64,000 nucleotides of DNA from Amoebophrya sp. A120 (taxonomy: Eukaryota; Protista; Dinoflagellata): positions 1,191,560-1,255,559 of the forward strand of contig CAJINV010000003.1 of assembly GCA_905178155.1 (NCBI GenBank). The letters are read 5' to 3'. The notes beneath the pieces were generated by a model. It did no database searches. It was not told where the DNA came from and saw only the letters and a list, made by a program, of their open reading frames with translations. Positions 1-33,632 of this stretch are shown piece after piece. Positions within the stretch are counted from its first letter, which is position 1. The number at the start of each line of letters is the position of its first letter. Both the position numbers and the translations under genes were made by a program.

Positions 1-1540
1 GGACCCTTCCCGGCCCGCCCCGAGGGCCTGCTGGACGTCGTGTAACCGCTCCAAAAACGCCTCGCGCGGACGTCGTGCGCATGACCCTTCCCCGCGCGCC
101 CCGGGGGCCTCCCGGACGTCGTGCGGCCGTTCCCGAAACGCCCCAGAGGGACGTCGTGCGCAGGGCCCCTCCCTGCCCGCCCCGAGGGCCTCCCGGACGT
201 CGTGCAACCGCTCCTGAAACGCCCCACGCGGGCGGCGTACGCTGGACCCCCCCGCAAGCCCCCCGGGGGCCCCCCGGACGTCGTTCAGCCGCTCCTGGAA
301 CGCCCCACGCGGACGTCGTGCGCAGGACCATTCCCCGCGCGCCCCGGGGGCCTCCCGGGCGTCGTGCGACCGCTCCTGAAACGCCCCGCGCGGACGTCGT
401 GCGCAGGACCCTTCCCCAACCGCCCCGAGGGTGGGCCGGCCTCCCGGACGTCGTGCAACCGCTCCTGAAACGCCCCACGCGGACGTCGTGCGCAGGACCG
501 TTTCCCGCCCGCCCTCGGGGCCTCCCGGACGTCGAGCAGCCGCTCCTGAAACGCCCCACGCGGACGTCGTGCGCGGGACCCTTCCCCACCCGCCCCGAGG
601 GCCTCCCGGACGTCGTGCAGCCGCTCCTGAAACGCCCCGCGCGGACGTCGTGCGCAGGACCCTTCCCCACCCGCCCCGGGGGCCGCCCGGACGTCGTGCA
701 ACCGCGCTGAAACGCCCCGCGCGGACGTCGTGCGCAGGACCCGTCCCCGCCCGCCCCAAAGGCCCCTCGGACGTCGTGCAACCCCCCCTGAAACGCCCCC
801 CGCGAACGTCGTGCGCGAGACCCTTCGCCGCCCGCCACGAGGACCTCTCCCGGACGTCGTGCAACCGCTCCTGAAACGCCCCGCGCGGACGTCGTGCGCC
901 GGACCCTTCGCCTCCCCGCGCCCCGGCCGGCGGCCTCCCGGACGTCGTGCAACCGCTCCTGAAACACCCCGCGCGGACGTCGTGCGCATGACCCTTCCCC
1001 GCGCGCCCCGGGGGCTTCCCGGACGTCGTGCAACCGCCCCTGAAGAAACGCCCCAAAGGGACGTCGTTTGCAGGACCCTTCCCCGCGCGCCTCGGGGGCC
1101 TCCCGGACGTCGTGCAACCGCCCCTGAAACGCCCCGTTCGGACGTCGAGAGCAGGACCCTTCCCCGCGCGCCCCGGGGGCCGCCGGGACGTCGCGCAACC
1201 GCTCCCGAAACGCCCCGAACGGACGTCGGTCGCAGGACCCATCCCGTTCCCCGCGCCCCGTCCGGGGGCCTACCGGGCGCCGTGCAGCCGCTCCCGAAAC
1301 GCCCCGCGCGGACATCGTGCGCCGGACCCTTTCCCACCCGCCCCGAGGGCCTCCCGGACGCCGTGCAACCGCTCCTGAAACGTTCCCGCGCGGACGCTGT
1401 GCGCAAAGCCTTCCCCGACCGCCCCGTGGGCCTTCCGGAGTTCGTGCAACCGCCCCCGAAATGCTGCGCAGACATCGCGCGCAAGACCCTTCCCCCCCCC
1501 AACCCGCGGCCCTTCCGGGCGTCGCGCAGTCGCCCCAATG
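1..1540. repeat. GC-rich tandem satellite A, 81-bp unit (open at left window edge)
   Basis: Consensus ~GGACCCTTCCCCGCGCGCCCCGGGGGCCTCCCGGACGTCGTGCAACCGCTCCTGAAACGCCCCGCGCGGACGTCGTGCGCA. First two copies start at 1 and 82. Each unit has two GGACGTCGTGC cores. Copies degenerate toward ~1500. Confidence 0.95.
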
Positions 1541-1559
1541 ACCTTACTCGGCAAGAGCT

Positions 1560-4500
1560 GCCCGATTCGGCGTCTGGGTTTCCCGACTCGGCGGCGCCGC
1601 GGCACGCGCGGGCGGGCCAACGTGAAAGCTTCCCGATTCGGCGACGCCGCAGCAAGCCGGGGCGGGCCAAAGTTGTCCGGCTCGGCGCCTCCCTAAGTTT
1701 CCCGATTCGGCGACGCCGCAGCAAGCCGCGGCGGGCCAAAGTTTCCCGATTCGGCGATGCCGCAACAGGCCGGGGCGGGCCAAAGTTGTCCGGCTCGGCG
1801 CCCCAGTTTCCCGATTCGGCGACGCCGCAGCACGCCGGGGCGGGTCAAAGTTGTCCGGCTCGTTGCCAAAGTTCCCCGGTTCGGCGATGCCGCACCAAGC
1901 CGCGGCGGGCCACAGTTTCCCGCTTCGGCGATGCCGCAGCAGGCCGGGGCGGGCCAAAGTTGCCCGGCTCGGCGCCCCAGTTCCCCGATTCGGCGACGCC
2001 GCAGCAAGCCGGGGCGGGCCAAAGTAGTTCGGCCTGGCGCCAAAGTTCCCCGATTCGGCGATGCCGCAGCAAGCCGCGGCGGGCCAAAGTTTCCCGGCTC
2101 GGCGATGCCGCAGCCGGCACGGGCGGGCCAAACAAAGTTGTCCGGTTCGGCGCTACAGTTTCCCGATTCGGCGATGCCGCAGCACGCCGGGGCGGGCCAA
2201 AGTTGTCCGGCTCGGCGCCAAAGTTCCCCGATTCAGCGATGCCGGAGCAAGCCGGGGCGGGCCAAAGTTTCCCAATTCGGCGACGCCGCAGCAAGCCGGG
2301 GCGGGCCAAAGTTGCCCGGCTCGGCGCCTATCTAAGTTCTTCGATTCGGCGACGCCGTAGCAAGCTGCGGCGGGCCAAAGTTTCCCGGTTCGGCGATGCC
2401 GCAGCAGGCCGGGGCGGGACAAAGTTGTCCGGCTCGGCGCCACAGTTTCCCGATTCGGCGACGCCGCAACGCGCCGAGCCGGACAACGCCGGGCCGGGCC
2501 AAAGTTGTTCGGCGCGGCGCCAAAGCTCCCCGATTCGGCGACGCCGCAGGCAGCAAGCCGCGGCGGGCCAAACAAAGTTTCCCGATTCGGCTATGCCGCA
2601 GCAGGGCGGGGCGGGCCAAAGTTGTCCGGCTCGGCGCCACAATTTCCCGATTCGGCGATGCCGCAGCAAGCCGGGGCGGGCCAAAGTTGTCCGGCTTGGC
2701 GCCAAAGTTCCCCGATTCGGCGAAGCCCCAGCAAGCCGCGGCGGGCCAAAATTCCCCGACTCGGCGACGCCACAACAGGCCGGGGCGGGCCAAAGTTGTC
2801 TGGTTCGGCGCCAGAGTTTCCCGATCCGGCGATGCCGCAGCACGCCGGGGCGGGCCAAAGTTGTCCGGCTTGGCGCCAAAGTTCCCCGATTCGGCGATGC
2901 CGGAGCAAGCCGGGGCGAGCCAAAGTTTCCCGATTCGGCGAGGCCGCAGCAAGCCGGGGCGGGCCAAAGTTGTCCGGCTCGGCGCCTAAGTTCCCCGATT
3001 CGGCGACGCCGCAGCAAGCCGCGGCGGGCCAAAGTTTCCCGATTCGGCGATGCCGCAACAGGCCGGGGCGGGCCAAAGTTGTCCGGTTCGGCGCCGCAGT
3101 TTCCCGATTCGGCGACGCCGCAACACGCCGGGGCGGGCCAAAGCTGCCCGGCTCGGCGCCAAAGTTCCCCGATTCGGCGACGCCACAGCAGGCCGCGGCG
3201 GGCCAAAGTTTCCCGATTCGGCGACGCCGCAGCAGGCCGGGGCGGGCCAAAGTTGTCCGGCTCGGCGCTACAGTTTCCCGATTCGGCGATGCCGCAGCAC
3301 GCCGGGGCGGGCCAAAGTTGTCCGGCTCGGCGCCAAAGTTCCCCGATTCAGCGAAGCCGGAGCAAGCCGGGGCGGGCCAAAGTTTCCCAATTCGGCGACG
3401 CCGCAGCAAGCCGGGGCGGGCCAAAGTTGCCCGGCTCGGCGCCTATCTAAGTTCTTCGATTCGGCGACGCCGTAGCAAGCTGCGGCGGGCCAAAGTTTCC
3501 CGGTTCGGCGATGCCGCAGCAGGCCGGGGCGGGACAAAGTTGTCCGGCTCGGCGCCACAGTTTCCCGATTCGGCGACGCCGCAACGCGCCGAGCCGGACA
3601 ACGCCGGGCCGGGCCAAAGTTGTTCGGCGCGGCGCCAAAGCTCCCCGATTCGGCGACGCCGCAGGCAGCAAGCCGCGGCGGGCCAAACAAAGTTTCCCGA
3701 TTCGGCTATGCCGCAGCAGGGCGGGGCGGGCCAAAGTTGTCCGGCTCGGCGCCACAATTTCCCGATTCGGCGATGCCGCAGCAAGCCGGGGCGGGCCAAA
3801 GTTGTCCGGCTTGGCGCCAAAGTTCCCCGATTCGGCGAAGCCCCAGCAAGCCGCGGCGGGCCAAAATTCCCCGACTCGGCGACGCCACAACAGGCCGGGG
3901 CGGGCCAAAGTTGTCTGGTTCGGCGCCAGAGTTTCCCGATCCGGCGATGCCGCAGCACGCCGGGGCGGGCCAAAGTTGTCCGGCTTGGCGCCAAAGTTCC
4001 CCGATTCGGCGATGCCGGAGCAAGCCGGGGCGAGCCAAAGTTTCCCGATTCGGCGAGGCCGCAGCAAGCCGGGGCGGGCCAAAGTTGTCCGGCTCGGCGC
4101 CTCCCTAAGTTTCCCGATTCGGCGACGCCGCAGCAAGCCGCGGCGGGCCAAAGTTTCCCGATTCGGCGATGCCGCAACAGGCCGGGGCGGGCCAAAGTTG
4201 TCCGGCTCGGCGCCCCAGTTTCCCGATTCGGCGACGCCGCAGCACGCCGGGGCGGGTCAAAGTTGTCCGGCTCGTTGCCAAAGTTCCCCGGTTCGGCGAT
4301 GCCGCACCAAGCCGCGGCGGGCCACAGTTTCCCGCTTCGGCGATGCCGCAGCAGGCCGGGGCGGGCCAAAGTTGCCCGGCTCGGCGCCCCAGTTCCCCGA
4401 TTCGGCGACGCCGCAGCAAGCCGGGGCGGGCCAAAGTAGTTCGGCCTGGCGCCAAAGTTCCCCGATTCGGCGATGCCGCAGCAAGCCGCGGCGGGCCAAA

Positions 4501-7500
4501 GTTTCCCGGCTCGGCGATGCCGCAGCCGGCACGGGCGGGCCAAACAAAGTTGTCCGGTTCGGCGCTACAGTTTCCCGATTCGGCGATGCCGCAGCACGCC
4601 GGGGCGGGCCAAAGTTGTCCGGCTCGGCGCCAAAGTTCCCCGATTCAGCGATGCCGGAGCAAGCCGGGGCGGGCCAAAGTTTCCCAATTCGGCGACGCCG
4701 CAGCAAGCCGGGGCGGGCCAAAGTTGCCCGGCTCGGCGCCTATCTAAGTTCTTCGATTCGGCGACGCCGTAGCAAGCTGCGGCGGGCCAAAGTTTCCCGG
4801 TTCGGCGATGCCGCAGCAGGCCGGGGCGGGACAAAGTTGTCCGGCTCGGCGCCACAGTTTCCCGATTCGGCGACGCCGCAACGCGCCGAGCCGGACAACG
4901 CCGGGCCGGGCCAAAGTTGTTCGGCGCGGCGCCAAAGCTCCCCGATTCGGCGACGCCGCAGGCAGCAAGCCGCGGCGGGCCAAACAAAGTTTCCCGATTC
5001 GGCTATGCCGCAGCAGGGCGGGGCGGGCCAAAGTTGTCCGGCTCGGCGCCACAATTTCCCGATTCGGCGATGCCGCAGCAAGCCGGGGCGGGCCAAAGTT
5101 GTCCGGCTTGGCGCCAAAGTTCCCCGATTCGGCGAAGCCCCAGCAAGCCGCGGCGGGCCAAAATTCCCCGACTCGGCGACGCCACAACAGGCCGGGGCGG
5201 GCCAAAGTTGTCTGGTTCGGCGCCAGAGTTTCCCGATCCGGCGATGCCGCAGCACGCCGGGGCGGGCCAAAGTTGTCCGGCTTGGCGCCAAAGTTCCCCG
5301 ATTCGGCGATGCCGGAGCAAGCCGGGGCGAGCCAAAGTTTCCCGATTCGGCGAGGCCGCAGCAAGCCGGGGCGGGCCAAAGTTGTCCGGCTCGGCGCCTA
5401 AGTTCCCCGATTCGGCGACGCCGCAGCAAGCCGCGGCGGGCCAAAGTTTCCCGATTCGGCGATGCCGCAACAGGCCGGGGCGGGCCAAAGTTGTCCGGTT
5501 CGGCGCCGCAGTTTCCCGATTCGGCGACGCCGCAACACGCCGGGGCGGGCCAAAGCTGCCCGGCTCGGCGCCAAAGTTCCCCGATTCGGCGACGCCACAG
5601 CAGGCCGCGGCGGGCCAAAGTTTCCCGATTCGGCGACGCCGCAGCAGGCCGGGGCGGGCCAAAGTTGTCCGGCTCGGCGCTACAGTTTCCCGATTCGGCG
5701 ATGCCGCAGCAAGCCGGGGCGGGCCAAAGTCGTCCGGCTTGGCGCCAAAGTTCCCCGATTCGGCGATGCCGCAGCATGCCGCGGCGGGCCACAGTTTCCC
5801 GATTCGATCGGCGACGCCGCAGCAGGCCGGGGCGGGCCAAAATTGTCCGGCTTGGCGCCACAGTTTCCCGATTCGGCGACGCCGCAACACGCCGGGGCGG
5901 GCCAAAGTTGTCCGGCTCGGCGCCAAAGTTCCCCGATTCGGCGATGCCGGAGCAAGCCGGGGCGCGCGGGCCAAAGTTTCCCGATTCGGCAACGCCACAG
6001 CACGCCGGGGCGGGCCAAAATTGTCCGGCTCGGCGCCTAAGTTCCCCGATTCGGCGACGCCGCAGCAAGCCGCGGCGGGCCAAAGTTTCCCGATTCGGCG
6101 ACGCCACAGCAGGCCGGGGCGGGCCAAAGTTGTCCGGCTCGGCGCCAAACAAAGCTCCCCGATTCGGCGACGCCGCAACAGGCCGCGGCGGGCCAAAGTT
6201 TCCCGATTCGGCGACGCCGCAACAGGCCGGGGCGGGCCAAGCAAAGTTGTCCGGTTCGGCGCCGCACGCAGTTGCCCGATTCGGCGACGCCGCAGCACGC
6301 CGGGGCGGCCGGGCCAAATTTTTCCGGCTTGGCGCCAAAGTTCCCCGATTCGGCGACGCCGCAGCAAGCCGCGGCGGGCCAAAGTTCCCCGATTCGGCGA
6401 TGCCGCAGCAGGCCGGGGCGGATCAAAGTTGTCCGGTTCGGCGCCAAAGTTTCCCGCTTCGGCGATGCCGCAGCACGCCAGGGCGGGCCAAAGTTGTCCG
6501 GCTCGGCGCCAAAGTTCCCCGATTCGGCGATGCCGGAGCAAGCCGGGACGGGCCAAAGTTCCTCGATTCGGGCGATGCCGGAGCAAGCCGGGGCGGGCCA
6601 AAGTTTCCCGATTCGGCGACGCCGCAACAAGCGGGCGGGCCAAAGTTGTCCGGCTCGGCGCCTAAATTCCCCGACTCGGCGACGCCGCAGCAAGCCGCGG
6701 CGGGCCAAAGCTTCCCGATTCGGCGATGCCGCAGCAGGCCGGGGCGGGCCAAAGTTGTCCGGTTCGGCGCAATAGTTTCCCGATTCGGCGATGCCGCAGC
6801 ACGCCGGGGCGGGCCAAAATTGTCCGGCTCGGCGCCAAAGTTCCCCGATTCGGCGATGCCGCAGCAGGCCGGGGCGGGCCAAAGTTGTTCGGTTTGGCGC
6901 CTCAGTTTCCCGGTTCGGCGATGCCGCAGCAGGCCGGGGCGGGCCAAAGTTGTCCGGCTTGCCGCCAAAGTTCCCCGATTCGGCGACGCCGCAGCAAGCC
7001 GCGGCGGGCCAAAGTTTCCCGATTCGGCGATGCCGCAGCAGGCCGGGGCGGGCCAAAGTTGTCCGGTTCGGCGCCAGAGTTTCCCGATCCGGCGATGCCG
7101 CAGCACGCCGGGGCGGGCCAAAGTTGTCCGGCTTGGCGCCAAAGTTCCCCGATTCGGCGATGCCGGAGCAAGCCGGGGCGAGCCAAAGTTTCCCGATTCG
7201 GCGAGGCCGCAGCAAGCCGGGGCGGGCCAAAGTTGTCCGGCTCGGCGCCTAAGTTCCCCGATTCGGCGACGCCGCAGCAAGCCGCGGCGGGCCAAAGTTT
7301 CCCGATTCGGCGATGCCGCAACAGGCCGGGGCGGGCCAAAGTTGTCCGGTTCGGCGCCGCAGTTTCCCGATTCGGCGACGCCGCAACACGCCGGGGCGGG
7401 CCAAAGCTGCCCGGCTCGGCGCCAAAGTTCCCCGATTCGGCGACGCCACAGCAGGCCGCGGCGGGCCAAAGTTTCCCGATTCGGCGACGCCGCAGCAGGC

Positions 7501-10500
7501 CGGGGCGGGCCAAAGTTGTCCGGCTCGGCGCTACAGTTTCCCGATTCGGCGATGCCGCAGCAAGCCGGGGCGGGCCAAAGCCGTCCGGCTTGGCGCCAAA
7601 GTTCCCCGATTCGGCGATGCCGCAGCATGCCGCGGCGGGCCACAGTTTCCCGATTCGATCGGCGACGCCGCAGCAGGCCGGGGCGGGCCAAAATTGTCCG
7701 GCTTGGCGCCACAGTTTCCCGATTCGGCGACGCCGCAACACGCCGGGGCGGGCCAAAGTTGTCCGGCTCGGCGCCAAAGTTCCCCGATTCGGCGATGCCG
7801 GAGCAAGCCGGGGCGCGCGGGCCAAAGTTTCCCGATTCGGCAACGCCACAGCACGCCGGGGCGGGCCAAAATTGTCCGGCTCGGCGCCTAAGTTCCCCGA
7901 TTCGGCGACGCCGCAGCAAGCCGCGGCGGGCCAAAGTTTCCCGATTCGGCGACGCCACAGCAGGCCGGGGCGGGCCAAAGTTGTCCGGCTCGGCGCCAAA
8001 CAAAGCTCCCCGATTCGGCGACGCCGCAACAGGCCGCGGCGGGCCAAAGTTTCCCGATTCGGCGACGCCGCAACAGGCCGGGGCGGGCCAAGCAAAGTTG
8101 TCCGGTTCGGCGCCGCACGCAGTTGCCCGATTCGGCGACGCCGCAGCACGCCGGGGCGGCCGGGCCAAATTTTTCCGGCTTGGCGCCAAAGTTCCCCGAT
8201 TCGGCGACGCCGCAGCAAGCCGCGGCGGGCCAAAGTTCCCCGATTCGGCGATGCCGCAGCAGGCCGGGGCGGATCAAAGTTGTCCGGTTCGGCGCCAAAG
8301 TTTCCCGCTTCGGCGATGCCGCAGCACGCCAGGGCGGGCCAAAGTTGTCCGGCTCGGCGCCAAAGTTCCCCGATTCGGCGATGCCGGAGCAAGCCGGGAC
8401 GGGCCAAAGTTCCTCGATTCGGGCGATGCCGGAGCAAGCCGGGGCGGGCCAAAGTTTCCCGATTCGGCGACGCCGCAACAAGCGGGCGGGCCAAAGTTGT
8501 CCGGCTCGGCGCCTAAATTCCCCGACTCGGCGACGCCGCAGCAAGCCGCGGCGGGCCAAAGCTTCCCGATTCGGCGATGCCGCAGCAGGCCGGGGCGGGC
8601 CAAAGTTGTCCGGTTCGGCGCAATAGTTTCCCGATTCGGCGATGCCGCAGCACGCCGGGGCGGGCCAAAATTGTCCGGCTCGGCGCCAAAGTTCCCCGAT
8701 TCGGCGATGCCGCAGCAGGCCGGGGCGGGCCAAAGTTGTTCGGTTTGGCGCCTCAGTTTCCCGGTTCGGCGATGCCGCAGCAGGCCGGGGCGGGCCAAAG
8801 TTGTCCGGCTTGCCGCCAAAGTTCCCCGATTCGGCGACGCCGCAGCAAGCCGCGGCGGGCCAAAGTTTCCCGATTCGGCGATGCCGCAGCAGGCCGGGGC
8901 GGGCCAAAGTTGTCCGGCTCGGCGCCAAAGTTCCCCGATTCGGCGATGCCGGAACAAGCCGGGGCGGGCCAAAGTTCCCCGATTCGGCGACGCCGCAGCA
9001 AGCCGGGGCGGGCCAAAGTTGTCCGGCTCGACGCCTGAGCTTCCCGATTCGGCGACGCCGCAGCAAGCCGCGGCGGGCCAAAGTTTCCCGATTCGGCGAC
9101 GCCGCAGCAGGCCAGGGCGGGCCAAAGTTGTCCGGTTCGGCGCCACAGTTTCCCGATTCGGCGACGCCGCAGCACGCCGGGGCGGGCCAAAGGTGTCCGG
9201 CTCGGCGCCAAAGTTCCCCGATTCATTCGACGACGCCGCAGCATGCCGCGGCGGGCCAAAGTTTCCCGATTCGGCGACGCCGCAGCAGGCCGGGGCGGGC
9301 CAAAGTTGTCCGGCGCGGCGCAACAGTTTCCCGCTTCGGCGACGCCGCAGCACGCCGGGGCGGGCCAAAGTTGTCCGGCTTGGCGCCAAAGTAAGTTCCC
9401 CGATTCGGCGATGCTTGCCGCAGCAAGCCGCGGCGGGCCAAAGTTCCCCGGTTCGGCGATGCCACAACGGGCCGGGGCGGGCCAAAGTTGTCCGGTTCGG
9501 CGCCACGCACAGTTCCCCGACTCGGCGACGCCGCAACACGCCGGGGCGGGCCAAAGTTGTCCGGCCCGGCGCCAAAGTTCCCCGCTTCGGCGATGCCGGA
9601 GCAAGCCGGGGCGGGCCAAATTTCCCCGATTCGGCGATGCCGCAGCAAGCCGGGGCGGGCCAAGCAAAGTTGTCCGGCTCGGCGCCTAAGTTTCCCGATT
9701 CGGCGACGCCGCAGCAAGCCGCGGCGGGCCAAAGTTCCTCGCTTCGGCGATGCCGCAACAGGCCGGGGCGGGCCAAAGTTGTCCGGTTCGGCGCTAAAGT
9801 TTCCCGATTCGGCGATGCCGCAGCACGCCGGGGCGGGCCAAAGTTGTCCGGCCCGGCGCCAAAGTTCCCCGATTCGGCGATGCCGCAGCACGCCGCGGCG
9901 GGCCAAAGTTTCCCGATTCGGCGATGCCGCAGCAGGCCGGGGCGGGCCAAAGTTGTCCGGCGCCGCGCTACAGCTTCCCGATTCGGCGATGCCGCAGCAG
10001 GCCGGGGCGGGCCAAAGTTGTCCGGCTTGGCGCCAAAGTTTCCCGATTCGGCGACGCCGCAACAAGCCGCGGCGGGCCAAAGTTTCCCGATTCGGCGACG
10101 CCGCAGCAGGCCGGGGCGGGCCAAGCAAAGTTGTCCGGTTCGGCGCCACAGTTTCCCGATTCGGCGATGCCGCAGGCAGCACGCCGGGGCGGGCCAAAGT
10201 TGTCCGGCTCGGCGCCAAAGTTCCCCGCTTCGGCGACGCCAGAGCAAGCCGGGGCGGGCCAAAGTTTCTCGATTCGGCGATGCCGCAGCAAGCCGGGGCG
10301 GGCCAAAGTTCTCCGGCTCGGCGCCGAAGTGCCCCGCTTCGGGGATGCCACAGCAAGCCGGAGCGGGCCACAGTTGTCCGGCTCGGCGCCAAGGTTTCCC
10401 GGCTCGGCGATGCCGCAGCATGCCGGAGCGGGCCGAGCAATGCTGCCCGGCAGGGCGCCAAAGGTTCCCGAGTCGGCGACGCCGCAGCAAGCCGGAGCGG

Positions 10501-11400
10501 GCCAAAGCTGTCCGGCTCGGCGCAAGGGTTTCCCTATGTATTCGGCGACGCCGCTGGAAGCGCGGGCGGGCCAAAGCAGTCCGATTCGGCGCCGAGGTTC
10601 CCCGATATGGCGAAGCCACAACAAGCCGGCGCGGGCCAAAATTTTCCGGCACGGCGCCAGCCAAAGTTCCCCGATTCGGCGATGCCACAACACGCGCGGG
10701 CGAGCCAAAATTGTCCGCGCCGGCAATGCCGCTGGCGCCATCTGCGTACGGGAACAGCCCCGAAAGGCCTACCTCTCGACAACGCCCGCAAGTCAATAAA
10801 TGCGGGCGGGGGGTCCGTCTCCGATTCGGCGCCCGGCAAAGCGCTCCGATAATTAGGCGACGCCGCAACAAGCGCGGGCAGGCCAAAGCTGCCCGGCTCG
10901 GCGATGCCGCCGACGCCATCTGCGTACCGGCCGGGGAAGCCCCCGCCGGCCTCTCTGGCGACAGCCCCCCTGCAAATACTCTGGCGCGGGCGGGGGGCCC
11001 CGATTCGGCGCCAAAGCAAGCTAGCTTCCCGGCTCGGCGGCGCCGCTGAAGCCTGCTGCGCAAGTACAAGACCAGCCCCGGCAGGACTTCGCCCCGGCAG
11101 CCTCCGCAAAACAGCAGGAGCGGGCGGGGCGGCCCCGATTCGGCCGGCGGCGCCGCCACAAGGCAAGCGCGGGCGGGCCGGCCGGCGTTTTCCGGTTCGG
11201 CGATGCCGCTGGCGCCATCTGCGTACAAGAACAACCCCGGCAAGCCCTTCGATGGCCCTCGCAAAGCAACACGCGCGGGCGGGGGGCCCCGATTCGGCGA
11301 CGCCGCCGCGAAAGTTTCCCGATTCGGCGACGCCACTGCAAGCGCGGGCGGGCCAAAGTTGTCCGATTCGGCGACGCCGCTGGCGCCGCCTACGTACTAG
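1560..11400. repeat. GC-rich tandem satellite B, mixed 44-bp and 65-bp units with higher-order duplications
   Basis: Short unit CCCGATTCGGCGACGCCGCAGCAAGCCGCGGCGGGCCAAAGTTT; the long unit adds a 21-nt GTTGTCCGGCTCGGCGCCAAA-type segment. Identical ORF translations recur at offsets 1115, 1297, 2412 and 1851 bp. The array diverges after ~10300. Confidence 0.95.
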
Positions 11401-26305: not shown

Positions 26306-29300
26306 CTACCCTTCATGTTCGTTAGTGCGTGCGACGTTGAAATCTGTCCATGCGTTGTCCCAGGAAATCTGCAAATCTATTTTCGGAAAGCGATGTTGAA
26401 ATTGACACAGGGCTCCTACGCACGAGATACAGGGATAGTGTGATACGTGCAGCCTGACGCGCCCACTTGGGACGGTGGTAATCGCGGGTAGAGCGCCATC
26501 TTCTGAAGTTGCAGGGGACGCATCTTTCCTTCCTGCTGCTTCCTCATGAGATTCCAACTCTTGCAGCAGTCGACGAATTGCCGTTATTTCGGCGTGGCTT
26601 GCGTTGGCGTCACGACTGCGGTAACCTCGAATCGTGTGCGGCCACGATGTGCGGCACGAATGCCCAGTTGCATGGTCGGCGTCGCACCCGACGCGACAAC
26701 TTCCCGAAAGACGCCTCTCTTCCGGTTCTATTTCGCCCTCCTCGGCAGTGCCTGCCTGCTTCTTCACTGTCAATTCCCACGAAAGCTCAGCTGTGATGTC
26801 AGCTGCGCGTGGAGGGCGGTAGAAAAACGGACCCTCGGAATAGTTCTGGTTTTCGGCCTTTCTGTCGAACACTGCCTTTTCTCTGTCGACGGCAAGAAGC
26901 ATTCCCATCTTTCTCAGCACGAATTCCGTGCCGTAGGCACCGAGTGACTGAAAGGACTGCTTGGCGGCCAACTTTCCGAGAAGAGTCGCATCCCCCGTAT
27001 TGAGAACGTGTTCAACAGCACGGACTACTGGATCGAAGATCCGGTGCGCATCTTTGTCAAGGGTGTGCCAATGTTCGGACCGCGCACTGGCGGAGGTCAA
27101 GGAGTCGAAAATCCTTATCCAGTCACCAATCGTTGTTGTAGCATGCTGACGCTCTTCGGTATTCTTCTCGCTAGACTTCCACGCCGCATGAAGACCCACC
27201 CGTCTCCAAATTCTGTAGACGCCGTCTTGGAGGCGGTCAAGCGACCACTCACCGGCAGGACTGTTTTCAGACTCTCGCCGCATAATGCCACTGTTTTTCT
27301 CGCTCTCATGCGCAGCTCTGAGTCGCAACAGGTGCACTCCCCAGCAGAAATTTGAGAAAATGAGCGGTGACCCCTGATCCCACGCCTTTTGGTCTTTCGT
27401 TTCGTCGTCGATCAACTTGCAGGACTGCGCTACAATCTCAGGCGCGTGTATTCGAAAGCGGCCGAGCAGTGGAACGACATGTAAGGTGTTGATAAAATCC
27501 CGCTCCAGAGATAAATCGCCCCCAAACCTGCCCATCAACGCTTTTGCTTGGCTGAGTAGGCGTGCGACTTGCTTGAGTTCCCCGAAGCGCTCGAAGGCGT
27601 TCGCGGCTTCGCGATAGGTTGCCACGTCTGGCTGCACGTCGCTCGACGCCCAGAATTTCAGCACCCTTTGCCACACCGCGCGCGTTGCTTCCGGCGCTGC
27701 CCGGGCGGCGCAGGCACGAAGCGCCGCGTTCAGAACGCGAATGTTCGGCTTTTCGAGTCGTTCCAGCAGTCCGACCACCGAGTCGCAGAGTCCACCGGAT
27801 TCGCACGCACGAAGCGCTGCAGCCACGCAAGCGTCGTCAATCATCTCTCCTTCCTCGGGCAGAAGGTTCAGCGCTTTCTGCCACTGCCCCGCTTTCGCGC
27901 AAGCCTCGATCGCCGATGCAGTGGCGATCAACAGAGACCGAGCCGCGCTAGTTGTACCGGTTTTATTTGAGCACCTTCTTGAAGATGTCCGCGCACGTTT
28001 CATCTGGTCCAGCAGGTCCACGGCCTCTCGCCATGCTCCGACGCGCTGACAAGACCCCACCGCCGAAGCGTAGGCCATTGGATCTGGCGCACCGCGCGTT
28101 TTCAAGCGGCGAAAAACGTCCAGAGCGTCGCGCCACCGCCCTGCTCGTTCACAGGTGTTCATACAAGCTGTGTAGCACACCAGGAGTGTCTTCCACAAAT
28201 CGTCTTCTTGTTCTTGACCAGCATCAACATCTCGAACGCTGGTCACGATGTAGGGGTCCTGTTGAAACGTCGTGACACTACCCTCTGCCTGTGTCACACC
28301 AAACTGGCCGGCACTGCTCTCCTTCAGCTCGTCATACACTTTCTCAGCTTGGTCCAGCAGTCTTAATGCTTCGTCCCATTTTCCTGCTCGCCTACAAGCG
28401 CTGATGCATCCTCCGTAGAGCCTGCACAGATTTGTCGTCCACGTCACGACACTAAGGCCACCGGACTGGTGTTCGCTTTTCTTGTAGTCTTCCAAAATAC
28501 GAACCGCTTCCTCCCATCTCCCCATCTGCGCGCAAACTGAGATCGTTGCAGCGAACGCGTGCACATCTTCCCCTGCGAGAAGTCCCGATCGATCGAAGAT
28601 TCGCACTGCGGTTCGCCAGTCGCGGAACTGACCACAGGTTGTGATTGCGGCCGTAATGGACCGCGGATTTTCTTGCAGATGCGGTAACTTGTCGAGAAGC
28701 TGCAAAATCCTCTCCACTGTCGGACAACACGACAAGGCGACGGTGCACGCCACGACGGAAGGTGTCTCAAATTGCAAACTCGTCTTTTCGAACAAATCAT
28801 ACGCATCAGCCGTGCGTCCGGAATTCCGGTAAATCTGCATCATGTCGACTGTGTGAAATTCATCCAGTTTCAACCCGAGTTCGTCCAGAGTCGCGTTCCC
28901 CTCACTGCTGAGGAGCCAGTCCGCAAACGCAGCACCGGTTGTGGAGTTTTTACGCCGAAAACGCATCAGAATTCCGGAAAGCGCACGACTGCGCGCCGTG
29001 GAAGAAGTATGGTATTTTTCGCCGCCGTCGCAAGAGTCGGATTTGAAGATCCGGCGGAAAAGCGGCTCGAAGCTCGGGATTCCCTCGCCGTCGCTCCGAA
29101 GTGCGTGAAAAAACCGGTCCTCTCGGTCGTGCGAAGTTCGTGAGCTGCGGTAGGACGTCGTGGAGGGGGCGTCGGTCTCTTCTTTCTGTCTCTGCAATAT
29201 CGTCTCATCATTTGAGGGCGCCGCGTCTTTTGTATTCCGGGACGTTGCGACAGACGTAATCGAACGCCAGGAGGAGGTGGGCTTTCCAAAAGGCGGGCCA

Positions 29301-29353
29301 CGACCGCTGCGTCCGAACCTCTTGCAAACATCATGTTGCCGCACATATCGCAT
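26306..29353 (-). CDS. Pentatricopeptide-repeat (PPR) protein with C-terminal zinc-dependent deaminase-fold domain, ~1015 aa, intronless
   Basis: About 10-11 PPR-like motifs (e.g. DVHAFAATISVCAQMGRWEEAVRILEDY, PDPMAYASAVGSCQRVGAWREAVDLLDQMK). C-terminal SHAEITAI (HAE 26596-26588) and VRLHVSHYPCISCVGALCQF (PCISC 26434-26420). The first ATG is at 29353 and opens an Arg/Ser-rich N-terminus. Confidence 0.85.
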   Translation of the reverse strand: MRYVRQHDVCKRFGRSGRGPPFGKPTSSWRSITSVATSRNTKDAAPSNDETILQRQKEETDAPSTTSYRSSRTSHDREDRFFHALRSDGEGIPSFEPLFRRIFKSDSCDGGEKYHTSSTARSRALSGILMRFRRKNSTTGAAFADWLLSSEGNATLDELGLKLDEFHTVDMMQIYRNSGRTADAYDLFEKTSLQFETPSVVACTVALSCCPTVERILQLLDKLPHLQENPRSITAAITTCGQFRDWRTAVRIFDRSGLLAGEDVHAFAATISVCAQMGRWEEAVRILEDYKKSEHQSGGLSVVTWTTNLCRLYGGCISACRRAGKWDEALRLLDQAEKVYDELKESSAGQFGVTQAEGSVTTFQQDPYIVTSVRDVDAGQEQEDDLWKTLLVCYTACMNTCERAGRWRDALDVFRRLKTRGAPDPMAYASAVGSCQRVGAWREAVDLLDQMKRARTSSRRCSNKTGTTSAARSLLIATASAIEACAKAGQWQKALNLLPEEGEMIDDACVAAALRACESGGLCDSVVGLLERLEKPNIRVLNAALRACAARAAPEATRAVWQRVLKFWASSDVQPDVATYREAANAFERFGELKQVARLLSQAKALMGRFGGDLSLERDFINTLHVVPLLGRFRIHAPEIVAQSCKLIDDETKDQKAWDQGSPLIFSNFCWGVHLLRLRAAHESEKNSGIMRRESENSPAGEWSLDRLQDGVYRIWRRVGLHAAWKSSEKNTEERQHATTTIGDWIRIFDSLTSASARSEHWHTLDKDAHRIFDPVVRAVEHVLNTGDATLLGKLAAKQSFQSLGAYGTEFVLRKMGMLLAVDREKAVFDRKAENQNYSEGPFFYRPPRAADITAELSWELTVKKQAGTAEEGEIEPEERRLSGSCRVGCDADHATGHSCRTSWPHTIRGYRSRDANASHAEITAIRRLLQELESHEEAAGRKDASPATSEDGALPAITTVPSGRVRLHVSHYPCISCVGALCQFQHRFPKIDLQISWDNAWTDFNVARTNEHEG

Positions 29354-29845: not shown

Positions 29846-30892
29846 TCAATCAGAATCGTCGCCGCTATCGTAGCCGTCACTGCCTCCACTATCGTCATCA
29901 TAGCCGCCGCTGTCGGAATCATCGCCGTCGCTGTTGCAATCAGCGTCGCCACTGTCGTAATCATCGCCACCGCTATCGTCCCCGGAGCTGCTTCCCCCTC
30001 CATCATCGTTACCACCTCCGTTATTGTCGCTACCGTCCTCCACATCACTGTTGCCACTTGCGTGGCTGCTGCCCACAGCATTCTCGTAGTCACTACTGCC
30101 AGCGGACTCATCTGCATGCGGGTTCTCGTCCACCTCACTGTCTTCGTTATCGTTGTGGCGTTCGTCATCAGTATCCGAGTTCGAGTTGTCACTGCAAGTG
30201 TTTTCATTGAAGTACTCGCGGTTCCCGTCTGCATCCTCGACCCAGCCCGAGGTCCCATCTGCATTTTCGAAGATTCGGTCTCCGTCCGCATTTTCCTGGT
30301 AGTGCGTGCCATCTTGGTTCGCGTACTCGTAAGCCCCATCTGGATACGCGGCATAATCGTTACCCAATTCGTTCCTTCCGTACCGGGCATCGGCGTCGGA
30401 GTCCTCTTCTTCGACGCGACAGTGGTACACCGATACACACTCAGCGGATGAGGCAGAATCGGCACTGTTCGGGTGGTCGTTGCCGCCATCCGACGAGCGT
30501 CGACACCAGTCGTCATCATCGCTGTCGGTGTCATTTTTCCCGCGGTGTGCGGCATTGCTCCGCGGCTCCGCTGCGCTCCGTGTTCCGCTATACCGCTGAG
30601 CCTGTTCGTTTCGACGCAGCGTGGAGGCCGGCTTTACCGCCTCGCTCCAGTATACCTTGCCACTGCGCTGACGGCGGGGATCCCACTTCCAGGCCCATCT
30701 CTGTTCAAATTGAACACCTCCGCTCCACCAGCGATTGCAACAATCATCGACATAGTCACCGTAGTACCAATCTGAATCGTACTTGTACCAGCCGGACTCC
30801 CGCGGTTCCTTGTCCTTCTTGGGAAGCGTGCCATCAGGCCTGCCGGTCGGACCGCCGCGATGCGCTTCTTTGGCGTGACGAGTAGATGGCAT
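29846..30892 (-). CDS. Hypothetical protein with Trp/Tyr-rich N-terminal part, repeated (N/D)xDG motifs and Asp/Gly/Ser low-complexity tail, 348 aa
   Basis: ATG-initiated ORF on the same strand as its neighbours. Segment YPDGAYEYANQDGTHYQENADGDRIFENADGTSGWVEDADGNREY, then an acidic tail. Confidence 0.7.
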   Translation of the reverse strand: MPSTRHAKEAHRGGPTGRPDGTLPKKDKEPRESGWYKYDSDWYYGDYVDDCCNRWWSGGVQFEQRWAWKWDPRRQRSGKVYWSEAVKPASTLRRNEQAQRYSGTRSAAEPRSNAAHRGKNDTDSDDDDWCRRSSDGGNDHPNSADSASSAECVSVYHCRVEEEDSDADARYGRNELGNDYAAYPDGAYEYANQDGTHYQENADGDRIFENADGTSGWVEDADGNREYFNENTCSDNSNSDTDDERHNDNEDSEVDENPHADESAGSSDYENAVGSSHASGNSDVEDGSDNNGGGNDDGGGSSSGDDSGGDDYDSGDADCNSDGDDSDSGGYDDDSGGSDGYDSGDDSD

Positions 30893-31355: not shown

Positions 31356-33632
31356 TCAAGTTTTCTCTGCATAAATCAGAACTGAGGCACACATTTCATC
31401 TACGTCCATGTTTTCTAAATGCTGATATTCTGGCCGCACAGCTCCCCCATGGATCTTAAAGCGCGCGGCCTGATCCGGGGTGAGTGTGTCGTCTGTCAGC
31501 GCGTCGAGGCCCTCTTCGCCAAAAATCTCGACTTCGTTGATGACGATGTTCGAGAAGCCGATTTTTCGCAGCATGGGTTCCAGCTCTGGGAGCCGGGCAA
31601 ACATCCGCATGCAGATCGGGAATTCTACAGGGCTGCCTTCTACTTTGCTGTCGTTTTCTGCAGGAGCGCCTGCGCCAGAAACCGGACATCTTTCCTTTGC
31701 TTGATTTGCAGCGCTTGATGTCCCGGGGAGCGCTTCCCGCATCGTTGTTGTGCAAATGGCCATGCGTCCGCCCTTCTTCAGCGCACGATACACCTGCGAA
31801 AACGCGCGCACCTTGTTCGGAATCAAGCAAAAAGCGCCATTCGAGATACAGACGTCGAATGCCGACTCGGCCATCCCATTCTCCGGCTTGTTGTTCGCCT
31901 CCTCAACAAAGGGTAAGCGCTCAATATCGGCACAAACGAAGCCTATGTTGCCCCTGCCTTCCCGTTCCGCGCGCTGCTTGGCGTGGTCGAGCTCCTTGCG
32001 CGAGAAGTCGACGGCAAGGACTGTCCCGTCTTCCCCCGTTTTCGACGCCGCGAGGAACGCGTCAACGCCGAGACCGCACCCGAGTTCCAGGACTTTTTCC
32101 CCGGCGCAGATCTTTGCCCCAAGAAACGGATTGCCCACGCCCTGGAAGTTGTAGAGGTTCTGCTTCCCGATCGCTTCCTGCTCTTCCAAAGTGTACCCCA
32201 GCGCGGTGAGCCACTTTTGTGCGCGCAAGAGATTCCCCTCGTGGTGCGCCGTGGCGCCGACCCGCTCGTACGCCGTGCGAGTCTCCTCCTTCTCGGGCAC
32301 GACAGTCTCGTCCTCTTGCTCTTCGTTGATCTGAATATTGCTTTCGTCGTCCTCGTCGTAAACGTACAGCACGTCGGCGTACGGGCTCTTAAATGGGAAG
32401 AACCTTTTCTCGTTATTTGCAGCTTCATCTGTTTCCAGAAGCATGCAATCCCTGCACGTTTCCAAAATTTTTGCCTTCGTGACCGCATAGCTGGCCTTGT
32501 CCTCCGGCTCGTCCAGATCGCATTCATAGGTCATTTGTGACAGAATTAACAACTCCTGCGACGAGCGTTCTTCCAGAAGATGCTGTTGATCGTCTTGTTC
32601 AGTCGCCTTCTGTGCATTCGCTCTTTCCAGAAGTCGATGGCAGTGCGGAACACCCAAGTAGTGATGCAGATGCGCCTTGCCCGCTACAACCAATGTTGTG
32701 GTTATCGATGAATCTGTATCTGGGGCTTGTTCTGTAGTTTTGCCATTATCTTTCGTCTGTTGGAACACCCGCCACGCCATGCTCCAGTCTTTCAAGCACT
32801 GCGCACCGAACATCCGCAACAAAGCCGGATTGCACATGGAGAAAAGCTCGCCAGGTTCGTGTCTCGACTCCGCCGAGTACACATCCCGTCCGCTCATCAA
32901 GGACTCGAATAAGCGGAAATAACCAACGCTGCTGAAGGGAAAACCGGTTTTCTCGAGGAGACTTTCGCCGTCAGCGGCGGACTCGGTTGGCGGGAGAAAG
33001 GCCCGGAAATCCTCGTCCGGTGGCCCAAGATACTTTTCAACTTCTAGCAAACTTTCCCAGGGCGGTAAATACCCCTTGTCACACAATTCCTGTACGTGTG
33101 CTTTTCTATCTGCCGCTGCTTCCAGGGGGCAAAAAGCGGCGGCAAGCGGGCGAGGTATGAAGCCGCCGACGATTTTTACCCGATCTGCATTTCGGCGCCA
33201 CGACTCAAACAGTTTCTCATAGGGGTCCAGGTCGTGCCCCTCGGTGCCAATCTCCTTGTAGGCCGCCTTGAAGTCGGCGAAGTCGGTGAATTTTCCGTCT
33301 CGAAAATACGCGTCCACAACGGGCCCTTGCATGTCATGGCTGAAGTGCTCCAGGACGACTTGCAGTTTCGCAGACGCAGAAGTTGTACTCGTTGTGCTCT
33401 GTAGTTGCAAGGCAGCATCGGATATTTTCTCCAGCAGCGCACAGATCCGGTTTTCCGAGTGGTACTCACCAAACCAAATCACGCACTGCCGACTGTCCCC
33501 GGTCGCGCAAGCCAGCTCGGTGAGCTCTTTGCCGCCTCGTCGAAGGAATCTCTGGGCATTTTGGTTCTTTTCCAGGGAACGATAGAGAAAGGCGTGTGGG
33601 AAGCGCATGGGTTCGGTCTCGTTGGCAGTCAT
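31356..33632 (-). CDS. Fusion of a ChaN-like (haem-uptake/Tiki superfamily) domain and an arsenite-methyltransferase-like class I SAM methyltransferase
   Basis: N part: VIWFGEYHS, VVLEHF, AQCLKDWSMA, LVVAGKAHLHHYLGVP. C part: FQGVGNP, VLELGCGLGVDAFLAASKTGEDGTVLAVDFS, FDVCISNGAFCLIPNKVRAFSQVYRALKKGGRMAI. The first ATG is at 33632. Confidence 0.75.
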   Translation of the reverse strand: MTANETEPMRFPHAFLYRSLEKNQNAQRFLRRGGKELTELACATGDSRQCVIWFGEYHSENRICALLEKISDAALQLQSTTSTTSASAKLQVVLEHFSHDMQGPVVDAYFRDGKFTDFADFKAAYKEIGTEGHDLDPYEKLFESWRRNADRVKIVGGFIPRPLAAAFCPLEAAADRKAHVQELCDKGYLPPWESLLEVEKYLGPPDEDFRAFLPPTESAADGESLLEKTGFPFSSVGYFRLFESLMSGRDVYSAESRHEPGELFSMCNPALLRMFGAQCLKDWSMAWRVFQQTKDNGKTTEQAPDTDSSITTTLVVAGKAHLHHYLGVPHCHRLLERANAQKATEQDDQQHLLEERSSQELLILSQMTYECDLDEPEDKASYAVTKAKILETCRDCMLLETDEAANNEKRFFPFKSPYADVLYVYDEDDESNIQINEEQEDETVVPEKEETRTAYERVGATAHHEGNLLRAQKWLTALGYTLEEQEAIGKQNLYNFQGVGNPFLGAKICAGEKVLELGCGLGVDAFLAASKTGEDGTVLAVDFSRKELDHAKQRAEREGRGNIGFVCADIERLPFVEEANNKPENGMAESAFDVCISNGAFCLIPNKVRAFSQVYRALKKGGRMAICTTTMREALPGTSSAANQAKERCPVSGAGAPAENDSKVEGSPVEFPICMRMFARLPELEPMLRKIGFSNIVINEVEIFGEEGLDALTDDTLTPDQAARFKIHGGAVRPEYQHLENMDVDEMCASVLIYAEKT

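Follow-up and report, generated by a model that had tools for sequence, protein, structure and literature searches.

A PPR array fused to a toxin-related zinc deaminase in Amoebophrya sp. A120, a candidate organellar RNA editing factor

The gene, its repeat array and its catalytic domain

A single-frame gene, P0001, lies on the minus strand of a 64,000-nucleotide stretch of contig CAJINV010000003.1 from the dinoflagellate Amoebophrya sp. A120 (the window), and it encodes a protein of 1015 amino acids in which a PPR array is followed by a zinc deaminase with affinity to bacterial toxins (26306..29353). The open reading frame has 1015 codons with no internal stops, and the identical protein is present as a called gene in a public protein collection; therefore, the repeats and the deaminase belong to one reading frame. 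A hidden intron is unsupported, as no stop interrupts the frame and the one inverted repeat of any size (24 nt, 75%) covers strand 1, which is conserved. The original prediction, made from the sequence alone, had quoted a C-terminal end at ...LQISW, after which the protein continues for 17 residues.

The N-terminus (residues 1-40; 29234..29353, minus) is basic and poor in acidic residues, with a net charge of +7 and one acidic residue in the first 30 positions, and it is disordered in the model. The expected presequence-like composition is thus borne out, no hydrophobic signal is visible in the N-terminal sequence, and the region may be a mitochondrial presequence, judging from its composition.

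Residues 165-611 (27521..28861, minus) hold about 11 PPR-like helix pairs, three of them with long inserts. Pfam matches the region to PF01535 (PPR) with an E value of 1.3e-21, and 11 motifs delimited by hand were subjected to a leave-one-out test against 200 shuffles. Seven of the 11 motifs score above all 200 shuffles; of the others, three rank below 2, 4 and 7 shuffles, and motif 2, the weakest, ranks below 29. Inserts of 11-46 residues interrupt motifs 4, 5 and 7. The full-length AlphaFold model (mean predicted local distance difference test score, pLDDT, 69; predicted template modelling score, pTM, 0.48) predicts a solenoid of 11 helix pairs that match the delimited motifs, and its top Foldseek matches are designed and natural PPR proteins, in agreement with the 10 or 11 motifs first proposed.

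The alignment and the model place a helical linker at residues 612-820 (26894..27520, minus). Its first part is common to the query and to a relative from a core dinoflagellate, P0011, and its last part shows family-wide conservation (L780, G805, T809, L813). The deaminase domain follows at residues 821-1015 (26309..26893, minus), as delimited by the C-terminal and full-length models and by structure search. Its putative first zinc ligand and catalytic glutamate form H920-A-E922 (residues 920-922; 26588..26596, minus), and the cysteines of P-C975-I-S-C978 (residues 974-978; 26420..26434, minus) would complete the zinc site, with roles assigned by analogy to the superfamily. Both motifs therefore stand where an intact active site had been anticipated.

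A model of residues 700-1015 was built on 63 sequences (pLDDT 80, pTM 0.80) and predicts the order helix, two strands, insert, HAE helix, strand, CxxC helix, strand and final helix. Strand 4 is followed by a single helix, and the model shows neither a fifth strand nor a DYW tail. When this model was compared with 48,161 solved chains by VIA-align, the best 20 matches were all deaminases (Z 4.8-6.7), which agrees with the deaminase fold that had been foreseen for the C-terminus. The scores are 6.7 for DddB (95 residues aligned, root-mean-square deviation, rmsd, 3.6), 6.6 for ADAT3, 6.5 for guanine deaminase and 6.1 for PPR-DYW. Given that these scores are tied, the fold identifies the deaminase superfamily and not a clade within it. 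Foldseek with the same model ranked APOBEC3 chains first, none of them at E<=0.001, and phmmer of the domain against PDB sequences returned nothing below an E value of 0.44. Pfam gives the query C-terminus weak matches to several deaminase families, DYW not among them. The [HCD]xE and PCxxC motifs, together with the predicted fold, place the domain in the CDA/deaminase superfamily.

Relatives and affinity to toxin deaminases

The deaminase is one of many. A phmmer search with residues 760-1015 over 1.84 billion representative sequences, at a cut-off of E<=0.001, found at least 100 relatives. Twenty relative clusters were looked up and eight carried an organism, of which seven are dinoflagellates and one is a Nocardia toxin, consistent with the dinoflagellate setting first suggested. 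The named dinoflagellates are Amoebophrya sp. A25 (the best match), Gymnodinium smaydae, Abedinium folium, Yihiella yeosuensis, Effrenium voratum, Polykrikos kofoidii and Breviolum minutum. The first ESM Atlas match for the query is a eukaryotic cluster in which Ciliophora is the phylum recorded most often, from 4 records; this is too thin to extend the range of the family, yet it is a caution against confining the family to dinoflagellates. The Atlas returned no usable match to the domain of a relative. Word-index homolog searches recovered the query itself and then 2 and 2 matches among about 8000 crowded candidates each, numbers that do not map the range of the family. A pattern scan of metagenomes confirmed one locus among 100 pattern matches, L001, which carries HPR-like repeats and a deaminase, and viral contigs gave no pattern match.

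The family alignment comprises 99 rows, from which two rows without the CxxC pattern had been dropped, such that the CxxC cysteines are invariant by construction. The catalytic glutamate, noted as intact in the original prediction, is retained in 91 of the 92 filled rows, and this conservation is largely independent of the search, given that many relatives were found via the CxxC stretch alone. The first ligand is His in 73 of the filled rows, Asp in 14 and Cys in 5, all of which could bind zinc. Subfamilies carry active sites of the forms HAER, HPER, HCEF, DAEF, CGEF and HAEI. The DAE subfamily, with Asp as first ligand, clusters in the tree (P0014, P0017, P0039, P0057, P0059, P0067, P0068, P0091, P0093, P0094), as does the CAE/CGE subfamily, with Cys as first ligand (P0023, P0054, P0077, P0090, P0099), and these subfamilies may differ in chemistry. 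In 90 of 92 rows an Arg precedes the first ligand by three residues, a count that includes the Amoebophrya relative P0002, the best match of the search, which is misaligned there. When P0002 is properly aligned, both it and the query (N917; 26603..26605, minus) have Asn at this position, which is the clearest oddity of the query protein. The motif around HAE is common to the query and to the divergent P0002, and each has an Arg both three and five positions ahead of the Asn.

Rather than the single PPR-deaminase fusion first pictured, the protein belongs to a large family in which PPR is not the usual partner. Among 42 relatives, Pfam finds PPR in 3 and FAST_1 in 19. Of 27 relatives with 500 residues or more, 23 contain two or more copies of an HPR/OPR-like repeat pattern of our own, written from the repeat consensus, as against 0 of 2700 shuffles. 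From these counts, HPR/OPR-like repeats with a deaminase are the usual form and PPR with a deaminase is the minority. The closest full relative is P0011, in which PPR, linker and deaminase all align with the query (25% over 653 columns, E 1e-22) and which starts with an Arg-rich, acid-poor stretch. HPR-type starts in P0046, P0047, P0064, P0066 and L001 (residues 1-30) share an (S/T)FY(A/G)P-like word and are not basic presequences; the word may be a different targeting signal. P0040, from Effrenium voratum, has two copies of the linker and deaminase unit and could represent two tandem genes merged in the gene model.

A quick LG+G4 tree was made from 82 rows, with 22 short rows excluded, and was rooted on three Nocardia domains only, so that it is not a test of origin. 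It has long branches. The query pairs with the PPR-bearing P0011 (SH-like approximate likelihood ratio test, SH-aLRT, 94, not starred) among HPR forms, apart from the other two PPR forms, which hints weakly that the repeat module may have been swapped within the family.

Sequence comparison relates the domain to the BURPS668_1122 toxin deaminases. Pfam assigns 41 of 63 family members to Toxin-deaminase (BURPS668_1122) at E<=0.01 and none of the 63 to DYW. For the query, Pfam DYW_deaminase gives no match at E<=1, and the family profile has 10 matches in the PDB at E<=10, none of them a DYW chain. The best bacterial match by phmmer is the Nocardia protein P0004 (E 3.5e-11), with three RxxDxE...PCDSC domains. 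The one scanned scores 44.2 bits, above the Pfam cut-off, and matches the family profile with a probability of 97.5 in profile comparison. In the ESM Atlas, BURPS668_1122 is the family listed next after the eukaryotic cluster (scores 0.89 and 0.88), a result at the level of a lead. The gathering score of PF14424 is 29.6 bits; the query lies below it, at 17.7-19.5, and the relative P0019 reaches 30.7. Helix 2 of PF14424 has the motif RxxDxExK. Asp is the first ligand in 14 of 92 relatives and the Arg is present in nearly all, and the query departs from the motif with NxxHAE.

Literature statements here and below refer to the available portions of the cited texts. By the traits that Iyer 2011 (PMC3239186) gives for a broad DYW-like clade, the family has Arg in 90 of 92 rows and Asp in 81 of 99, and the residue after HxE is R in 50 or F in 29, not K. 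No Lys is found among the conserved columns of the family, and the query has HAEI with Asn. The query does not fit the AID/APOBEC traits in Table 1 of the same paper, which are strand 5 with two further helices, Trp in strand 3 and SxS before PCxxC: its model closes with a single helix behind strand 4, and its sequence at the last of these is VSHYPC. Nor is a PG dipeptide, HSE or DYW found anywhere in the query protein, as had been claimed at the outset, and our own patterns find a DYW-like tail with a second zinc site in 0 of 100 relatives. The proposal of a toxin-like or APOBEC-like rather than DYW deaminase thus holds for its non-DYW, BURPS668_1122-related part, by Pfam and by profiles, but APOBEC is not the nearest clade. 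Descent from the BURPS668_1122 toxin clade is the best-supported reading of these sequence comparisons. The query is not a plant-type PPR-DYW protein, as the defining features examined are absent, yet it probably works in the same way.

In the rest of the window, the upstream neighbour (29846-30892, minus) is an open reading frame of 348 residues with a Trp/Tyr-rich start, an Asp/Gly/Ser-rich tail and no Pfam match, and beyond it a ChaN/Tiki-like domain is fused to a class I methyltransferase (31356-33632, minus). No functional link to the PPR-deaminase gene was seen among the neighbouring genes, which include methyltransferases and a phosphatase-like protein. Positions 1-10900 are GC-rich (~70%), satellite-like DNA, with an 81-bp array at 1-1528 and then a stretch of ~9 kb in which 44- and 65-bp units are mixed, and yield long, spurious-looking open reading frames on both strands. 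At 43723-63825 (minus), a single frame encodes a 6700-residue repeat protein rich in Ser, Leu, Gly and Val, with a periodicity of 12/24 residues. Pfam gave no match to a 1000-residue slice of this protein, which we guess to be a very long beta-solenoid.

Proposed function and rival explanations

The interpretation favoured here, with a probability of roughly 55%, is that the protein is imported into the mitochondrion and edits RNA there under the guidance of its repeats, as an enzyme that arose independently of plant PPR-DYW. Helical repeats of the PPR and HPR kinds are known from organellar RNA metabolism. The basic N-terminus would direct import, the PPR tract would bind about 11 bases of RNA, the linker would position the deaminase, and a zinc-dependent attack would fall on one base, with Glu922 as the proton shuttle. 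Such a role for the glutamate is established chemistry in the deaminase superfamily. Dinoflagellate organelles edit heavily, by effectors that are called poorly understood (PMC5888634, PMC3268668).

If the protein does edit, A-to-I is slightly favoured as its reaction, at somewhat under an even chance, because A-to-G edits are the most frequent in dinoflagellates and the only ones of deamination type recorded for Amoebophrya. A-to-G is dominant in the mitochondria of Hematodinium (PMC3268668) and makes up about 42% of edits in dinoflagellate plastids (PMC5888634). Interconversion of C and U is nearly as likely, because cytidine deamination is the activity of the bacterial relatives, on single-stranded DNA for members of PF14424 (bioRxiv 2023.05.21.541555), and because U-to-C edits occur in the genus. 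The plain, plant-like C-to-U reaction first envisaged is the poorest fit for Amoebophrya, given that only A-to-G and U-to-C edits are recorded (PMC6394959). A bolder and doubtful extension is that dinoflagellates fused a BURPS668_1122 toxin deaminase to HPR/OPR and PPR readers and then expanded the family, with the active sites of subfamilies giving different edits, including repeat-guided A-to-I or U-to-C.

Several observations weigh against repeat-guided editing. The code pairs at position 5 and the last position are canonical, by the plant PPR code, in 4 of the 11 motifs (TN, TD, TD, ND). Two further motifs have Ala-Asp and Ala-Asn, and the remaining pairs are non-canonical. Since few repeats carry canonical pairs, the description of the array as programmable is weakly based. 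The long inserts in three repeats, the Asn in place of the family Arg in the query and in P0002, and the gene model of P0002, 389 residues without repeats, count on the same side, as do the many long relatives without a presequence-like start, several of which are fragments. In Amoebophrya ex Karlodinium, 57 mitochondrial edits comprise 40 A-to-G and 17 U-to-C and no C-to-U (PMC6394959), whereas the substrate of those bacterial relatives that were tested is C in DNA. For three other Amoebophrya strains, the known mitochondrial DNA is a short cox1 piece, with no editing reported in the available text (PMC8136515). Editing is apparently absent from Perkinsus (PMC3268668), yet Perkinsus has BURPS668_1122-type proteins with predicted transit peptides (PMC3239186); therefore, a protein of this type need not imply editing. 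ADAR-like and DYW-like editing candidates are also present in dinoflagellates (PMC12787238).

These points give room to other explanations. An organellar RNA-binding factor could stabilise or process fragmented mitochondrial rRNA or mRNA, or modify a base of rRNA or imported tRNA, without recoding mRNA, in which case the deaminase would contribute structure or a modifying activity. In myzozoans, HPR proteins are described as parts of the mitoribosome and as RNA-handling factors, the Perkinsus proteins are suggested to be regulatory RNA binders (Iyer 2011, PMC3239186), and the lineage may have very little mitochondrial coding sequence (PMC8136515). This role is rather unlikely, however, with a nearly invariant Glu and a zinc-capable first ligand in 92 of 92 filled rows, and the many subfamilies with differing repeats are more in line with a range of separate targets than with a single structural function. 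A weakened or inactive member of an editing family, which the parasite retained for its RNA-binding repeats once fewer sites were left to edit, would account for the loss of the family Arg in both Amoebophrya-type proteins, for the long branches and inserts and for the degenerate code positions. Such a remnant is unlikely in turn, given that H, E, C and C are intact, that the motif surrounding HAE is common to two divergent proteins, and that the Arg residues upstream of the Asn in both could substitute for the lost one.

The two remaining explanations move the protein out of the organelle or into another clade. A nuclear or cytosolic deaminase, serving in defence against viruses or mobile elements, in nuclear transcript editing or in a retained, toxin-like role directed at the host, would be in keeping with the affinity to bacterial toxins, and Krishnan 2018 (PMC5889660) offers virus or transposon conflict as an alternative for the dinoflagellate deaminase expansions. 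Nuclear editing is reported in Symbiodinium, but none was seen in nuclear mRNA of Amoebophrya ex Karlodinium in the available account (PMC6394959). With PPR and HPR repeats that are typical of organellar proteins and a basic N-terminus that shows no visible hydrophobic signal, this explanation is improbable. Least probable is a highly diverged plant-type PPR-DYW editor that has lost the PG box and DYW tail and is not an independent invention. The PPR-DYW structure (Z 6.1) is tied with the top structural matches, and the family has three traits of the broad DYW-like clade of Iyer 2011 (PMC3239186), namely a basic insert residue ahead of the HxE helix, a second basic residue that often follows HxE, and an Asp behind strand 4. 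Set against these are the 41 Toxin-deaminase and zero DYW assignments among 63 members, the lack of a DYW chain among the 10 PDB matches of the family profile, the lack of a DYW-like tail in 100 relatives, and the D-x-E forms with an upstream Arg, which fit the BURPS668_1122 signature RxxDxE.

Comparison with known systems

Open literature, with subscription papers not covered, yielded no description of PPR or HPR repeats fused to a BURPS668_1122-like deaminase, and there is a fair chance that the family has been noted once in passing under a DYW label. Krishnan 2018 (PMC5889660) describes an expansion of the 'DYW clade' in dinoflagellates, Syndiniales among them, with 1-39 paralogs in each species, and suggests organellar editing, all of which resembles the present family. 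Unlike that family, the expansion is classed as DYW, and a repeat fusion is not mentioned in the available text. Because the present family has some traits of the broad DYW clade, it may be the Krishnan 2018 set under another name, an identity that we hold possible at a little short of even odds. The PPR-DYW-like and ADAR-like candidates of Symbiodinium (Liew 2017; PMC12787238) are likewise proposed dinoflagellate editing enzymes, but the PPR-DYW-like genes number two per genome, are aligned to plant DYW and are called rare, whereas the present family is larger and is not DYW by Pfam. A 2026 review of dinoflagellate RNA-binding proteins (PMC12787238) regards DYW-type proteins as rare and their role as open, and the available text of its PPR section describes no such fusion.

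The Perkinsus proteins of the BURPS668_1122 clade (Iyer 2011, PMC3239186), compared here by description only, are also from an alveolate, fall in the same clade and have predicted transit peptides, but they are two in number, are called apparently inactive and, in the available text, are not tied to repeats or editing. The BURPS668_1122 toxins themselves (PF14424, for example P0004) share the RxxD/HxE and CxSC motifs with the family, which differs from them in being eukaryotic, in carrying RNA-reading repeats in place of a secretion scaffold, and in having mostly His rather than Asp as the first ligand.

The closest parallel in architecture is plant PPR-DYW, such as OTP86 and a synthetic PPR-DYW (PDB 9kfx), in which a repeat array, a helical linker and a C-terminal HxE/CxxC deaminase are likewise joined in one protein; the query model has the same overall fold as 9kfx (Z 6.1, 102 residues aligned, rmsd 3.5). 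The query differs from plant PPR-DYW in lacking PG, HSE, a Pfam DYW match and the DYW tail with its second zinc site, a feature of PPR-DYW (PMC7611903). The repeats of its family are mostly HPR/OPR-like, and its deaminase is nearer to another toxin clade. The family supplies concrete candidates, with the right anatomy and numbers, for the editing enzymes of dinoflagellate mitochondria and plastids. If the proposed function is correct, an RNA-reading solenoid and a toxin-derived deaminase would have been joined a second time, independently, and HPR/OPR repeats would, to our knowledge, be seen together with an editing domain for the first time. Being compact (~195 residues) and free of a DYW gate, the deaminase could serve RNA editing tools, especially if it acts on A. 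Should the more doubtful scenario of a family expanded toward different edits also prove true, the result would be an adenosine editor that occurs naturally, is addressed by repeats and stands apart from ADAR, TadA and DYW.

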